A DNA stretch of 6,030 bases from a virus (taxonomy: Duplodnaviria > Heunggongvirae > Uroviricota > Caudoviricetes), in the IMG/VR virus record IMGVR_UViG_2681813273_000006, one strand, 5' to 3'. The stretch's first letter is position 1, and every line of letters begins with the position of its first letter. Made by a program: the position numbers and the translations under genes. The notes under the pieces are model-generated. The model did no database searches. It was not told the origin of the DNA and worked only from the letters and a program-made list of their open reading frames with translations. Below are positions 1 to 6,030 of the stretch, one piece after another.

Positions 1-151
1 AATGGGTTAAGTGATAACAGGTGTCTGGAAATATAGGGGCAAATCCAGCGTTCATCAGCCCCCGCATTGCCGACAGGATCACAGACGGGGGGCGCAACTG
101 GTTGTCGTTCAACTGGCCCAGCTACCGTTCTTGTATCAGAGGTGTGGCTGC

Positions 152-1543
152 ATGACAACACCAGTCTGGCGTAATGATGACCTGGAAGGCGCTGTCATTG
201 GCGCATTCTTTCTGCGTGGGGCAGATCATGAAGTGATGGATATTCTGATCACACTACCGGCGGACATTTTTTCTGTACGAGCGTATCGGGATATCTACAC
301 AGGCATCTGCAGACAGGCCCGTGTTTCAGGAGTGATTGACCCCGTGCTGTTGTGTAATGAGATGCCGGAACTTGCCCCGGTGATTACTGATACCGGGCGT
401 AAAACCTGGGTGAAGTCTTCACTGGAGCACTATGTTGCAGCGTTGCGGCGCAATGCCGCACTGCGCGATGCAGAAAAAACACTGAATGAGGCGCTGCAGA
501 AATTACGTGATGCGCATACCTGTGAAGCAGCTGAAGATGCCCTGAAGGATGCGCAGAACATGATGGTCACACTGTCGACAGGAAAGGGCGTCATTCAGCC
601 GGTACATATTGATGATGTGCTTCCGGAAGTGGTTGAGCGTGTTGAATGCCGGAATCAGGGGCTGGAGAAATCCAGGACGTTGATGACCGGTATTGATGAA
701 CTGGACGCAAAAACAGGCGGTATGGAGCCCGGAGACCTGGTATTCATTGCCGCCCGTCCTTCGATGGGGAAAACCGAACTTGCGCTGGACATCATCGACA
801 AGGTGACTGAGCAGGGGCATGGTGTGCTTCTGTTCACCATGGAGATGGCGAACATCCAGATTGGTGAACGTATGGTGTCTGCGGCTGGAGGGATGCCAGT
901 ATCACGCCTGAAATCTGTGGCTCACTTTGAAGATGAAGACTGGGCGCGTTTCTCACAAGGGGTGGGGCGGATGACCGGGCGCAATATCTGGATGGTGGAC
1001 CAGGCGAACCTGACCATTGATGAGATATGCGCAACAACGAAACACCATCTGATTAAACATCCGGAAACGGCGCTGGTGGTGGTTGATTATCTCGGGCTGA
1101 TAAAAACCCGAACCACGGGGCGTCATGACCTTGCCGTGGGTGAAATCTCAAAGGGGCTTAAAGGCCTGGCAAAATCCGGTGGTTTTCCGTTGATTGCGCT
1201 GAGCCAGCTCTCCCGCGGTGTGGAGTCCAGACCCAATAAACGTCCCATGAACTCAGACCTGAAAAATTCCGGAGAAATAGAGGCGGATGCAGACATCATT
1301 CTGATGCTTTACAGGGATGAAGTGTACAACCCGGATACACAGGCTACAGGCATAGCAGAAATTAATATCACGAAACAACGTAACGGTTCTCTGGGGACGA
1401 TTTACCGGCGTTTTTATAACGGACATTTTCTGCCTGTGGACCAGGAAAGCGCACAGGTTCTTTCCACCCCAATGCGGCAGCCCCAGCCGCGCAGATACAG
1501 CAATACACGTACCGACAGCAGTAAGATGGAGCGTTTCTTTTGA
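152..1543 (+). CDS. Phage-encoded DnaB-family replicative DNA helicase (P22 gp12-like). Start could instead be the GTG at 11.
   Basis: Long ORF with recognisable DnaB motifs: Walker A-like IAARPSMGKTE, and [43 protein letters not shown] closely resembling the E. coli DnaB C-terminal region. ATG at 152 has a GAGG Shine-Dalgarno 9 nt upstream. The ORF stays open back to GTG at 11, just after an in-frame TAA at 8-10. Confidence 0.85.
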   Translation: MTTPVWRNDDLEGAVIGAFFLRGADHEVMDILITLPADIFSVRAYRDIYTGICRQARVSGVIDPVLLCNEMPELAPVITDTGRKTWVKSSLEHYVAALRRNAALRDAEKTLNEALQKLRDAHTCEAAEDALKDAQNMMVTLSTGKGVIQPVHIDDVLPEVVERVECRNQGLEKSRTLMTGIDELDAKTGGMEPGDLVFIAARPSMGKTELALDIIDKVTEQGHGVLLFTMEMANIQIGERMVSAAGGMPVSRLKSVAHFEDEDWARFSQGVGRMTGRNIWMVDQANLTIDEICATTKHHLIKHPETALVVVDYLGLIKTRTTGRHDLAVGEISKGLKGLAKSGGFPLIALSQLSRGVESRPNKRPMNSDLKNSGEIEADADIILMLYRDEVYNPDTQATGIAEINITKQRNGSLGTIYRRFYNGHFLPVDQESAQVLSTPMRQPQPRRYSNTRTDSSKMERFF

Positions 1544-1647: not shown

Positions 1648-1658
1648 NNNNNNNNNNN
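1648..1658. other. Assembly gap (11 N)
   Basis: Run of n characters in the sequence; sequence on either side is not collinear. Confidence 0.95.
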
Positions 1659-1682
1659 GTATTAAGACTATCACTTATTTAA

Positions 1683-1844
1683 GTGATACTGGTTGTCTGG
1701 AGATTCAGGGGGCCAGTCTACGGACATTTTCTGCCTGTGGACCAGGAAAGTGCACGGGTGCTTTCCACTCCCATGAAGCCCGGCAATCCGCGCAGATACA
1801 GTAATAAACGAACTGACAGCAGTAAGATGGAGCGTTTCTTTTGA
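1683..1844 (+). pseudogene. Helicase remnant in paralogous copy B: 53-codon in-frame ORF joining an N-terminal-proximal segment to the helicase C-terminal tail
   Basis: 1679-1720 aligns at about 70% identity to window 7-50 (TAA-GTG-ATA...). 1721-1844 aligns to the helicase 3' end 1420-1543 ([18 protein letters not shown]) in the same frame with the same stop. No internal stop codons. The roughly 1.4 kb helicase core is absent. Confidence 0.45.
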
Positions 1845-2439: not shown

Positions 2440-2768
2440 GCGGTGTGGAGTCCAGACCCAATAAACGTCCCATGAACTCAGACCTGAAAAATTCCGGAGA
2501 AATAGAGGCGGATGCAGACATCATTCTGATGCTTTACAGGGATGAAGTGTACAACCCGGATACACAGGCTACAGGCATAGCAGAAATTAATATCACGAAA
2601 CAACGTAACGGTTCTCTGGGGACGATTTACCGGCGTTTTTATAACGGACATTTTCTGCCTGTGGACCAGGAAAGCGCACAGGTTCTTTCCACCCCAATGC
2701 GGCAGCCCCAGCCGCGCAGATACAGCAATACACGTACCGACAGCAGTAAGATGGAGCGTTTCTTTTGA
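2440..2768 (+). pseudogene. 5'-truncated copy of the helicase C-terminal coding region; likely an assembly duplicate, not an independent gene
   Basis: Identical to helicase 1215-1543 and begins immediately after the n at 2439. The listed 2445-2768 ORF simply starts at an internal Met. Confidence 0.55.
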
Positions 2769-2872
2769 ACAACCAGACAATGACTTTTACCTCTGAACAA
2801 TTGCGTAAACACGCGCAGGAAATGTTGCGACAGGCGGAACAACTGGAAAAAACAGGTGTAACAAAAGATGCC
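2440..2872 (+). repeat. Exact 433-bp direct repeat of 1215-1647 (helicase 3' end plus start of the small ORF); probable contig overlap
   Basis: Base-by-base comparison of 1215-1647 with 2440-2872 shows identity at a constant offset of 1225. The repeat is bounded by the single n at 2439 and, in the first copy, by the N-run at 1648. Confidence 0.85.
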
Positions 2873-3022
2873 ATTCGTCGGGATATGGTGCCAGCGCTCA
2901 GGGAACTGATGCAGGCGAAACATCGCGCACAAAAAGCGGTGGATGAGCTCGTTGATTGTGTGGCAGAGCTGGAAACCAAAGTTGGAAAGTTTGAAAAAAT
3001 GGTGCAGGAGGTGCTGCGCTGA
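2780..3022 (+). CDS. Small alpha-helical phage protein (80 aa), copy A, function unknown
   Basis: ORF MTFTSEQLRKHAQEML...VQEVLR with ATG at 2780. Stop overlaps the rusA ATG (TGATG). No clear Shine-Dalgarno, so the start is uncertain (TTG at 2765 is an alternative). Confidence 0.65.
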   Translation: MTFTSEQLRKHAQEMLRQAEQLEKTGVTKDAIRRDMVPALRELMQAKHRAQKAVDELVDCVAELETKVGKFEKMVQEVLR

Positions 3023-3393
3023 TGCGCCATGAGTTTATTTTACCTTATCCGCCGACGGTGAATACTTACTGGCGACGTCGTGGCAGCACATATTTTGTAT
3101 CAAAAGTTGGTGAGCGTTATCGCCGTGATGTGACGCTAATTGTTCGCCAGCAGCGGCTGAAATTAAACCTGTCCGGAAGGCTGGCGATAAAGATTATTGC
3201 AGAGCCACCGGATAAGCGCCGTCGTGACCTGGACAATATCCTGAAAGCACCACTGGATGCGCTGACGCATGCCGGACTACTCATAGACGACGAGCAGTTT
3301 GATGAAATCAATATTGTGCGCGGTCAGCTCGTTCCTGGTGGGCGACTGGGCGTGAAGATTTATGAAATCACAGGTGATAACGATGGCGCGTGA
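3022..3393 (+). CDS. rusA: RusA-family Holliday junction resolvase (endodeoxyribonuclease RusA)
   Basis: 123-aa ORF with RusA signatures, including the acidic motif RRRDLDN and the DDEQ / GGRL region; resembles E. coli prophage RusA. AGGAGG lies 10 nt upstream of the ATG. Confidence 0.85.
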
Positions 3394-3769
3394 TATTCAG
3401 CAGGTTATGGAACGGTGGGGGGCTTGGGCTGCAAACACTCATGAAGATGTATCCTGGGCGTCGATCGCTGCTGGTTTTAAAGGGTTAATTCCGTCGAAAG
3501 TGAAATCACGCCCTCAGTGTTCTGATGATGATGCAATGATAATTTGTGGCTGTATGGCCCGGTTGAACAAGAAAAATCAGGATTTGCACGATTTGCTGGT
3601 GGATTATTACGTAGGTGGAATGACTTTTATGAGTCTGGCACGGAAACATGGGTGTTCGGATACCTGTATTGGCAAGCGCCTGCAGAAAGCGGAAGGGGTT
3701 ATTGATGGCATGTTGATGATGCTTGATATCCGGCTGGAGATGGACAGATACGTAGAACGAATTATGTAG
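3383..3769 (+). CDS. Late-gene antiterminator Q (phage 82 / DLP12 quuD-like family)
   Basis: [28 protein letters not shown]...[16 protein letters not shown]...GKRLQKAEG strongly resembles my recollection of E. coli prophage Q (QuuD-type) proteins. ATG at 3383 has an AGGTGA Shine-Dalgarno 5 nt upstream and overlaps the rusA stop. A strong promoter follows at once. Confidence 0.8.
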
Positions 3770-3773
3770 GTGC

Positions 3774-3803
3774 TTGACCAGACACATTGTCCGGGGCTAT
3801 ATT
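3774..3803 (+). promoter_or_regulatory. Sigma70 late promoter (PR'-like) immediately downstream of Q
   Basis: TTGACC (3774-3779), 18-nt spacer, TATATT (3798-3803). The position directly after the Q stop matches lambdoid late-promoter/qut architecture. A 6-bp hairpin CGCCAG/CTGGCG sits at 3811-3828 in the initial transcribed region. Confidence 0.6.
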
Positions 3804-3864
3804 CCTCACGCGCCAGCAAAATCTGGCGTCGGGATTGGAACCCCGGATAGAGACCGCGACAGAC

Positions 3865-3889
3865 ACACGCCGCGAGCGTGTTTTTTATT
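3865..3889 (+). terminator. Intrinsic terminator (tR'-like), ending a roughly 77-nt leader RNA from the late promoter
   Basis: Stem ACACGC / GCGTGT with loop CGCGA, followed by TTTTTTATT. Confidence 0.6.
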
Positions 3890-4243
3890 GTCGTATGCAC
3901 GCGCACATCTGAATTATGGTGGGGCGCATGGGGGAGCTGAAAAGCTCGCCGGTCGGTTTCCCGGTAGTTCCAACCCTGTGCGTCTCACCACCCGATGATT
4001 GGAACCTGACGGTGTTGACAGTTTCAGGTTTGCAGTTTACATTTCCCCGCGGTGCTCAAAACACCTCGAAAGCGGTATCCACACCCGATAGCCATGTGGT
4101 TTTTTTGTGTCCAGAATTCTTGGTTTATGACCGGGTGTGCGGCTAATACAATACCAGCAATGGAAATACGCCCGCCGACTTTCGACGGTTTTGAGCGCCC
4201 GGTCACCCTCTCAAAAGGGGTAAATCAAAATATTCGAAAGGAC

Positions 4244-4813
4244 ATGTCTATGAATCGCACGTCTATTGAAAAACTCCCGTCACTTACGCATAACCATCTT
4301 CCTGTCATGACAACAGAGCTGCTGGCTGATTTGTACGGAACAGAGCGCCAGCGTTTGACAAACAATTTCAATCGAAACAAAGAACGGTTTATAGAAGGTA
4401 AACATTTTTTCCTGATAGAAGGTGATGCGTTACGAGAGTTGAAGAACGAAAACTCTTTAAGAGTTTCTGTGAAAATTGCCCGTAACGTTCGCTCCCTCAT
4501 CCTCTGGACAGAACGTGGCGCAGCCCGTCACGCCAAAATGCTCGAAACCGATCAGGCGTGGGAAGTGTTCGAAAAACTGGAAGACTGTTATTTCAACCAG
4601 AAACAGCCACCAGCGGCACAAAACACATCTATCGAAAATGATGGATGCGCATTACTGAGCCACTTCGATAAACACGGTCAGGTTGAGTTCACGGAAAAGG
4701 TACCCGCCGATGCGATGGTATGTACTCTGGAACGGTTTAAATTTTATCTGGAGCAACACGGGTGGATCGTTGCCCGTAAAGAGCAACTGGTGGAGCGGTT
4801 GATGCGGTTTTAA
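4244..4813 (+). CDS. ORF6N-domain (KilA-N-related) putative DNA-binding / antirepressor-like protein; start may be ATG 4250
   Basis: N-terminal region VMTTELLADLYGTERQRLTNNFNRNKERFIEGKHFFLIEGDALRELKN ... LWTERGAARHAKML fits the ORF6N domain pattern as I recall it. AAGGA Shine-Dalgarno lies 7 nt before ATG 4250. The ORF-track extension back to 4052 has no start codon and covers leader sequence. Confidence 0.65.
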   Translation: MSMNRTSIEKLPSLTHNHLPVMTTELLADLYGTERQRLTNNFNRNKERFIEGKHFFLIEGDALRELKNENSLRVSVKIARNVRSLILWTERGAARHAKMLETDQAWEVFEKLEDCYFNQKQPPAAQNTSIENDGCALLSHFDKHGQVEFTEKVPADAMVCTLERFKFYLEQHGWIVARKEQLVERLMRF

Positions 4814-4889
4814 AAATTTTTTCCGAAAACTTTACGATCGTAAAAAGTTGAATATCCTGTTAAGAGTGGTTACTACGCCACACAGCTTA

Positions 4890-4915
4890 AACCCGCCGAT
4901 GAGCGGGTTTTTTTA
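4890..4915 (+). terminator. Intrinsic terminator downstream of the ORF6N gene
   Basis: Stem ACCCGC / GCGGGT with loop CGATGA, followed by TTTTTTTAT. Confidence 0.65.
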
Positions 4916-4964
4916 TACCTGAAAAACGGCACAGGACGTTAAACGTGCTGGTGGTCAGATGAGT

Positions 4965-4993
4965 TTGCAGATGTGATGACATATGGTTATTAT
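4965..4993 (+). promoter_or_regulatory. Sigma70-like promoter directly upstream of the tRNA cluster
   Basis: TTGCAG (4965-4970), 17-nt spacer, TATTAT (4988-4993). The first tRNA starts 10 nt downstream. Confidence 0.45.
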
Positions 4994-5002
4994 TCTGCCT
5001 CC

Positions 5003-5079
5003 GGCCCTTTAGCTCAGTTGGTCAGAGCGAGCGACTCATAATCGCCAGGTCGCTGGTTCAAGTCCAGCAAGGGCCACCA
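5003..5079 (+). tRNA. tRNA-Ile2 (anticodon CAT, lysidine type, ileX/ileZ-like); tRNA-Met not formally excluded
   Basis: Manual cloverleaf: acceptor GGCCCTT/AAGGGCC, D-arm GCTC..GAGC, anticodon loop CTCATAA, T-arm GCTGG TTCAAGT CCAGC, discriminator A plus CCA. Closely resembles E. coli ileX. Confidence 0.8.
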
Positions 5080-5080
5080 A

Positions 5081-5157
5081 CCACCACTAGCTCATCCGGA
5101 TAGAGCATCAACCTTCTAAGTTGACGGTGCGAGGTTCGAGTCCTCGGTGGTGGGCCA
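5081..5157 (+). tRNA. tRNA-Arg (anticodon TCT, reads AGA)
   Basis: Manual fold: acceptor CCACCAC/GTGGTGG, anticodon stem TCAAC/GTTGA with loop CTTCTAA, T-arm CGAGG TTCGAGT CCTCG, discriminator G plus CCA. Confidence 0.8.
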
Positions 5158-5159
5158 GC

Positions 5160-5235
<76 letters not shown>

Positions 5236-5238
5236 TAT

Positions 5239-5313
<75 letters not shown>

Positions 5314-5926
5314 GCGAGATTTGAGACGAAGGTTGTTATTTGCACTGACACAATATTGTGTGGGAATGTCTGACTCCTTACCATCTCCTGTTCTGTGATG
5401 TTGTTTTGTTGCAGTTCCAGTGCTCTTTTTTCAGCACCAGAATGGTGCATTGTCGGTCAGGTTACGTAGTGAACCTCTGGCAGGGGACTGATGATTCATC
5501 ATTCTGGTGTTGTAAATATCTCTTCGGACAACTTACAAAATATTCTAAGCAAACCCCGGGAACACACTCTTAACTGCCTTGGCTGGCGGTTTTTTGTACA
5601 GCGCTCGGTATGTGTGAGCTGGAAATCAGATTTTGCATGGACTGGAATCATGCTGTTATTTAGGGGCGAAGAACTGGCTTTTTCTTCCGCCTTCTCACCA
5701 GTAACGATTAGAAAAATAATGAAATGCCCCCCTCCGGGGAGGAGGACCGTAGAAAAAAGGACCCGCCAGCAAAAACATTGGGGATGAACAGCTTTCGCTA
5801 CTCAGATTGCTGGCGGGTAAAGTTCCTCATGAATTAAGAATGCTACGCGATCTTTTTTAATGGAAATGAAAATTATTGTCAATTAGTCGTGCGTGTTTTT
5901 TCATACAATATTGGTAAAGGTGATTC

Positions 5927-5960
5927 AGGCCATCAGAGTTTTGCTGATGGCCTTTTTTCT
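5927..5960 (+). terminator. Strong intrinsic terminator
   Basis: 10-bp perfect stem AGGCCATCAG / CTGATGGCCT with 7-nt loop AGTTTTG, followed by TTTTTT. The reverse strand lacks a T-run, so it is + strand specific. Confidence 0.75.
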
Positions 5961-6030
5961 TTCCGATAGCACAGGTCTGTCGGGGGGGTGCCCCTATTAA
6001 GTTGTCAAGCATGTTATGACCCCTGCGGGG

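Follow-up and report, generated by a model that had tools for sequence, protein, structure and literature searches.

The palindrome beside a scaffold gap in prophage DNA maps to the OrfA and promoter region of an IS2 left end

The 20-bp palindrome that lies beside a gap in the window (the whole stretch of 6,030 bases of viral DNA analysed here) very probably corresponds to bp 33-52 of the insertion sequence IS2, where it spans the junction between the left terminal repeat (IRL) and the control region and forms the regulatory site for OrfA and the promoter P_IRL, in a copy of IS2 located inside a prophage helicase gene. By sequence identity of both of its ends, the element is a member of IS2 (IS3 family, IS2 group), and the region of the palindrome coincides with the OrfA-docking and P_IRL region that is already known from published work. 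An earlier note on this DNA had proposed a protein-binding site, either of a replication origin or of a regulator, and had pointed to the half-sites of lambdoid operators. A regulatory protein site is indeed found here, namely that of the IS2 OrfA/transposase at P_IRL, whereas a phage replication origin and a lambdoid operator are not.

Assignment of the palindrome to IS2 and structure of the scaffold

The palindrome itself agrees with its earlier description. The bases at 1669-1688, TATCACTTATTTAAGTGATA, form a perfect 9-bp inverted repeat with a 2-bp spacer, which in window orientation reads TATCACTTA-TT-TAAGTGATA, and the right half, TTAAGTGATA, is present again at the start of the window, as had also been noticed. 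It is the sole palindrome of the window with arms of at least 9 bp and a spacer of 0-6 bp, the chance expectation being about 0.1 such palindromes according to mononucleotide shuffles of the window. An N-run is located 11 bp to the left of the palindrome, and a lone n is found at position 2439.

Read on the minus strand, the 62 bases that separate the N-run from phage DNA, TAGACTGGCCCCCTGAATCTCCAGACAACCAGTATCACTTAAATAAGTGATAGTCTTAATAC, are bp 1-62 of IS2, with identity at all 62 positions to copies in many genomes. Window position 1721-n is therefore equivalent to IS2 bp n, which places the palindrome at bp 33-52. When the 62-mer was compared by megablast with complete E. coli genomes, 19,658 matches (90-100% identity) were found in 4,589 of 5,426 genomes, with a median of 3 and a maximum of 41 copies per genome; the matches are on both chromosomes and plasmids and mostly outside prophages, that is, they have the dispersed, multi-copy distribution of IS2. 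In the two annotated copies that were inspected, 30 bp separate the end of the 62-mer from a downstream CDS that carries the annotation 'IS3-like element IS2 family transposase' and a programmed frameshift.

A complete reference IS2 of 1,331 bp (L002 2001-3331), which is not bracketed by a 5-bp target duplication, has the 62-mer as its bp 1-62 and positions 1-47 of the window as its bp 1285-1331. These 47 bases are identical (47/47) to IS2 right ends in many E. coli genomes, with matches in 3,101 genomes, and the first 36 of them, in frame 1, encode NGLSDNRCLEI*, corresponding to the last 11 codons and the stop of orfB. Both termini carry the IS2 sequences, since the 42-bp IRL starts with 5'-TAGACTGGCCCC and the 41-bp right repeat (IRR) ends with ...GGGGCAAATCCA-3'. 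For each of these two ends, the opposite end of its IS2 copy falls in the gap or beyond the window. Concerning the orfA/orfB frameshift genes, the window holds only those last 11 orfB codons, and the interior beside the palindrome is represented by Ns; OrfA matches HTH_Tnp_1. With respect to the IS2 described by Hu et al. 1994 and by Lewis et al. 2004, 2012, the 62/62 sequence is the same, as is its placement relative to the transposase gene in the reference copies, and the right end is also in the window; what is particular here is the prophage helicase context and the interior missing from the scaffold. The coordinates of all these features are collected in Table 1.

Table 1. IS2-derived and adjoining prophage features of the window (strand "." where none applies)
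Feature	Position	Strand	Basis or remark
First 62 bp of IS2	1659-1720	-	62/62 identity; remainder replaced by N-run
IRL, 42 bp, IS2 bp 1-42, recipient end in transposition	1679-1720	-	Identity to IS2; length and numbering from PMC3299598
20-bp palindrome, IS2 bp 33-52, TATCACTTA-AA-TAAGTGATA in IS2 orientation	1669-1688	.	Left arm is the inner end of IRL (conserved element III); right arm is just inside the element
Transposase-protected IS2 bp 39-48, TTAAATAAGT	1673-1682	-	Footprint of PMC3299598, mapped by sequence identity
TAAATAA, IS2 bp 40-46, OrfA/InsA docking site as reported	1675-1681	-	Mapped by sequence identity
Extended -10 promoter P_IRL, TGATAGTCT, IS2 bp 48-56	1665-1673	-	Numbering as in PMC3299598
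N-run, scaffold gap in place of IS2 bp 63-1331 and anything beyond	1648-1658	.	
Last 47 bp of a second IS2 end	1-47	+	IRR (41 bp) is 7-47; orfB end is 1-36
Single half-site TATCACTTAA, inner end of IRR	7-16	-	Alignment with complete IS2
3' remnant of prophage replicative (DnaB-like) helicase gene, cut by IS2 left end	1721-1844	+	Homology, alignment
3' remnant of DnaC-like 'ATP-binding protein' (helicase loader) gene, cut by the other IS2 end	48-155	+	
Intact helicase gene	152-1543		Follows loader remnant; annotation of L004

Phage homology begins exactly at the IS2 termini, at position 1721 (query position 62-63) on one side and at position 48 on the other. From 1721 onward the window contains the 3' end of the helicase gene, then a small ORF and rusA, with 99.7% identity to E. 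coli FDAARGOS_944. The window as a whole consists of three joined contigs, c1 (1-1647), c2 (1659-2438) and c3 (2440-6030). Contigs c1 and c3 share 433 bases without a difference, at the end of c1 (1215-1647) and at the beginning of c3 (2440-2872), whereas the identity of c2 to its homologous segments in both is only about 89%; across the single n that precedes c3, the 3' end of rusA is followed by the middle of a helicase gene. The point of the IS2/helicase junction corresponds to 1420/1421 in c1 and to 2644/2645 in c3, and the helicase gene is uninterrupted at both. Contig c2 is presumably an allele from a second, related prophage, and we infer that the scaffolder placed it between c1 and c3, two contigs that belonged merged.

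The replication module therefore appears in three copies (A, B and C of the earlier note) because the scaffold was built from three contigs with c2 misplaced, and the palindrome is missing from copies A and C at the homologous position because it arrived by insertion. Its absence from other copies of the module had been named beforehand as a sign of an artefact; the absence is formally observed, but it reflects an insertion instead. Likewise, the assembly break beside the palindrome is the usual behaviour of a short-read assembler, because IS2 is a multi-copy repeat, and the hairpin that had been offered as the cause of the break is not needed. The stop/start junction that the palindrome was said to overlap is not one of genes: both the TAA (1680-1682) and the GTG (1683-1685) fall within non-coding DNA at the left end of IS2 and are read on the strand opposite to its genes, and the GTG-initiated ORF at 1683-1844 is a read-through from IS2 into the truncated 3' remnant of the helicase gene. 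At the start of the window, the supposedly in-frame TAA and GTG (8-13) belong to a different frame, the real one being frame 1, which encodes the C-terminus of the IS2 transposase; the half-site found there lies in the IRR, an imperfect inverted copy of IRL, and marks no gene junction. No second arm accompanies this half-site at 7-16, where the adjoining bases in IS2 orientation are CCCATT.

IS2 at either junction site is absent from all complete E. coli genomes in the collection, and both IS2/phage junction 30-mers have no match in the genome contigs searched. It was also observed that in E. coli FDAARGOS_944, the closest complete-genome relative of c2, an IS600 (L003 371-1527) interrupts the same helicase gene at a more upstream point; IS elements have thus struck the replication module of the c2-type prophage repeatedly, in different strains. 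The two related prophages of the source genome appear to have been hit by IS2 in their replication modules, one in the loader and the other in the helicase.

Other features were recorded farther along the window. On the plus strand, between the Q antiterminator gene (3362-3769) and an ant/KilA-like ORF (4250-4813), four Rfam families score above the gathering threshold within 3797-4212: c4-a1b1 (3797-3849), isrK (3810-3886), C4 antisense RNA (3912-3995) and sRNA-Xcc1 (4129-4212). As a group, these matches resemble a c4-ant immunity module of the P1/P7 type, here in a lambdoid late region. Downstream of Q, also on the plus strand, four tRNA genes (5003-5313) have the anticodons CAT, TCT (Arg), TGT (Thr) and TCC (Gly), the first being called Met and annotated as Ile in relatives. 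A tRNA cluster downstream of Q is in the usual location for Stx-type lambdoid prophages.

Control at the IS2 left end and the proposed role of the dyad

The left end of IS2 has been characterised in detail (PMC3299598, Lewis et al. 2012). IRL measures 42 bp and IRR 41 bp, and T39 T40 A41 A42 close the inner conserved element (III) of IRL; transposase preparations gave strong protection of bp 39-42 and of the adjoining bp 43-48 (ATAAGT). The same paper, citing Hu et al. 1994 (J Mol Biol 236:503), gives TAAATAA as the docking site of the OrfA/InsA repressor, and the binding of OrfA and the repression of P_IRL are results of Hu et al. 1994 as cited there. TGAT at bp 48-51 starts the extended -10 of P_IRL (PMC3299598), and OrfA is reported to dimerise via residues 58-105 (Lei & Hu 1997, as cited in PMC3219604). 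In the IS2 literature examined, including PMC3299598, the OrfA site is either the 7-bp TAAATAA or the 10-bp segment 39-48, and the words 'palindrome' and 'dyad' are not used for it.

Both TAAATAA and, one base farther on, TGATAGTCT are present in the window, as expected of an OrfA operator with P_IRL. The promoter directs transcription of orfA/orfAB toward lower window coordinates, into the gap. P_IRL was not picked up when the IS2 left end was scanned with a sigma-70 two-hexamer consensus, which fits a weak extended -10 promoter.

The IS2 literature gives each part of the palindrome a function. The left arm, TATCACTTA, is the inner conserved block of the terminal repeat; this block recurs at the right end and belongs to the domain that the HTH region of OrfAB binds. 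The centre, TAAATAA, docks the 14-kDa OrfA/InsA, which dimerises and has the same HTH as OrfAB, and the right arm, TAAGTGATA, holds the TG and the opening bases of the weak extended -10 of P_IRL, from which the orfA/orfAB transcripts originate. Since the site of OrfA and transposase overlaps P_IRL, binding there occludes the promoter, resulting in autorepression and low transposition. In the mechanism proposed here, an OrfA dimer sitting on the dyad would block P_IRL and compete with the transposase at IRL. The dyad symmetry may be attributed to a dimeric HTH protein that reads two terminal-repeat half-sites, and the entire 20-bp dyad would then be the recognition unit of OrfA; because the second half-site exists at the left end only, the left end alone would act as operator.

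Similar arrangements are found in other insertion sequences. InsA of IS1 at the terminal repeats, the N-terminal 17-kDa fragment in IS30 and the IRL promoter of IS911 are likewise cases in which the binding of the regulator or transposase overlaps the element's own promoter. The logic shared with IS1 and IS30 is that of an element-encoded HTH protein placed at the inner terminal repeat, over the promoter, leading to autorepression, and the parallel between IS30 and IS2 is drawn in PMC3299598. However, unlike the OrfA of IS2, that of IS911 is reported not to repress the promoter (PMC3299598), and in IS1 both ends are bound, whereas in IS2 the half-site that completes the dyad is found at the left end only.

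It is possible, although we stop short of calling it probable, that the operator is the whole dyad (CNCTTA-N2-3-TAAGNG, with 9-bp arms in IS2) and not the 7-bp TAAATAA, that it originated from an inverted duplication of the half-site at the left end only, that it has been conserved with compensatory changes from the Enterobacteriaceae to Pseudomonas, and that its spacer flips between AA and TT, perhaps through palindrome-templated strand switching.

The dyad in relatives of IS2 and in natural IS2 copies

Relatives of IS2 were gathered by tblastn, using the IS2 OrfA as query against plasmids and phages, and their OrfA identity ranges from 65 to 94%. Seven elements were compared with IS2: ISEc27, two elements from Salmonella plasmids and four phage-borne elements, carried by Burkholderia phage Momento, Ralstonia phage RsoM1USA and the Pseudomonas phages D14L and MD8. 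The ends of each element were set from the terminal repeats; 5-bp target duplications bracket five of the seven, and the copy in Salmonella pRSE01 has none. An Enterobacter element (L006) was dropped because it has no left end upstream of orfA, being truncated by another IS, and the protein alignment was made without L007, whose orfA is interrupted by an internal stop.

The dyad CNCTTA-N2-3-TAAGNG is found at the same position in all eight elements (IS2 and the seven relatives). Directly 3' of it, a -10-like GATAGTCT is present in six of the eight, IS2 included, and GATAGGCA in both Pseudomonas elements. Over the eight elements, 44 of the 48 inner-arm cells are Watson-Crick pairs, and paired cells amount to 80.6%, compared with 40-57% after the partner columns were shifted. 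The variable inner position is A:T in IS2 and ISEc27, T:A in Salmonella pRSE01, C:G in both Pseudomonas elements and T:G, which is a mismatch in duplex DNA, in three of the eight. At the three outer positions of the arms (TAT/ATA), complementarity is confined to IS2 and ISEc27, and the right ends of the compared elements have one half-site only. This comparison speaks for selection on the symmetry of the inner six positions of the dyad. It should be noted that changes on both sides occurred in one pair only, a value reached by 374 of 500 shuffles, and that the eight elements represent about four independent lineages, a small sample for covariation.

The spacer was evaluated in natural copies of IS2. 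A metagenome scan with OrfA alignment returned near-identical IS2 only (99%) and no diverged relatives, and it yielded 74 left ends from 80 loci (L010-L089). In the 20 bp upstream of GTCTTAATACTAG, corresponding to IS2 bp 33-52, the spacer of the palindrome is AA in 54 of these left ends and TT in 18. The TT version is the exact reverse complement of the AA 20-mer, the two spacer bases change together in all but one copy, and the change is seen on several mosaic IS2 SNP backgrounds. This pattern suggests that the spacer may have flipped by palindrome-templated strand switching, or in a single event that was then spread by recombination. Both orientations of the spacer would be tolerable under symmetric recognition, and we counted this in favour of a symmetric mode.

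A second palindrome, ACTAGT-TTTTAG-ACTAGT, was observed in the 5' leader of IS2, between the -10 of P_IRL and the ribosome-binding site of orfA (IS2 bp 61-78, L002 2061-2078); of it, bp 61-62 alone are in the window, at 1659-1660. It is kept in ISEc27 but absent from the more distant relatives.

Alternative readings and significance

Lambda operators are 17-bp pseudo-palindromes with half-sites of the TATCAC(C/T)GC type, of which TATCAC is the outer part. This hexamer is shared by the palindrome and, in addition, is found 8 times in the window where 2.1 are expected, so that a CI/Cro-type operator of the resident prophage, controlling replication or late genes, had to be considered. However, three of the 8 are accounted for by IS2 ends, and two others (1366 and 2591) are in the 433-bp stretch that is identical in c1 and c3. 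The palindrome is inside IS2, phage homology stops at 1720/1721, and the same 62-mer recurs at about 19,700 chromosomal and plasmid sites regardless of prophages. Apart from the hexamer, the IS2 site has in common with the lambda O_R/O_L sites of CI and Cro a dyad and a dimeric HTH protein overlapping a promoter; the agreement between half-sites is limited to 6 bases, the inner half-site of lambda being TATCACCGC, and TATCAC and GTGATA are 8 bp apart instead of the 5 bp of 17-bp lambda operators, which puts the half-sites out of phase. Lambda operators are phage-encoded and come as tandem triplets between cI and cro, whereas the 20-bp site is IS2-borne and single, and no cI/cro-like ORFs flank it. 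We therefore rejected the lambda-type operator, a reading that we regard as hardly credible, and an iteron of a replication origin was rejected as well because the palindrome belongs to IS2. Two direct GTGATA hexamers (3374-3379 and 3390-3395), 16 bp apart at the overlap of rusA and Q, were noted separately and add to the excess of TATCAC.

An artefact of adaptor, chimera or assembly at a contig end beside the N-run is equally negligible in our opinion. The short distance to the N-run (11 bp), the absence from the two other copies of the phage module and a scaffold that is clearly mis-joined, with c2 between c1 and c3 despite their 433 identical bases, could all be read in this sense. Against it, the 62 bp are a natural sequence, matched in 4,589 finished E. 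coli genomes and in 74 of the 80 metagenome loci, and their join to phage DNA is exactly at the IS2 terminus, as in a true insertion; an artefact or adaptor was rejected on these grounds.

The palindrome might also act as a nucleic-acid hairpin, either as an RNA stem-loop in the 5' leader of transcripts started upstream (by host read-through or from the minicircle promoter Pjunc) or as a DNA cruciform or hairpin during transposition. The single strand folds with -6 kcal/mol (z = -4 versus shuffles), the variable position pairs in all eight elements if G-U is allowed, with the inner six pairs nearly always paired, and the flip between AA and TT is typical of hairpin-templated strand switching. 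Moreover, the 17-bp spacer of Pjunc spans the circle junction (PMC3299598), and Pjunc transcripts would therefore start in the outer IRL and include bp 33-52. On the other hand, the stem is short and AT-rich, with an effective loop of 4 nt over 8 pairs, and, since it precedes the start site of P_IRL and is separated by about 30 nt from the ribosome-binding site, it cannot sequester the start of orfA. An intrinsic terminator was rejected, as the stem is not followed by a T-run and no terminator was called in a scan of the IS2 left end, and no Rfam match was found at 1659-1720. The published footprint, in turn, shows protein protection of exactly this duplex segment (PMC3299598). A hairpin role consequently seems improbable to us, and the palindrome is better read as the site of OrfA and P_IRL in the IS2 left end.

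The palindrome is thus reclassified as a textbook end of an insertion sequence, neither a new phage operator nor an origin. The IS2 reading also accounts for the N-run, for the apparent copies A, B and C and for the spurious GTG-initiated ORFs, and the apparent IS2 hits in the replication modules of both prophages are ordinary prophage decay. What is mildly new concerns IS2 itself: the dyad is kept across the IS2 subgroup, with some covariation, and its spacer exists in both orientations in natural IS2.
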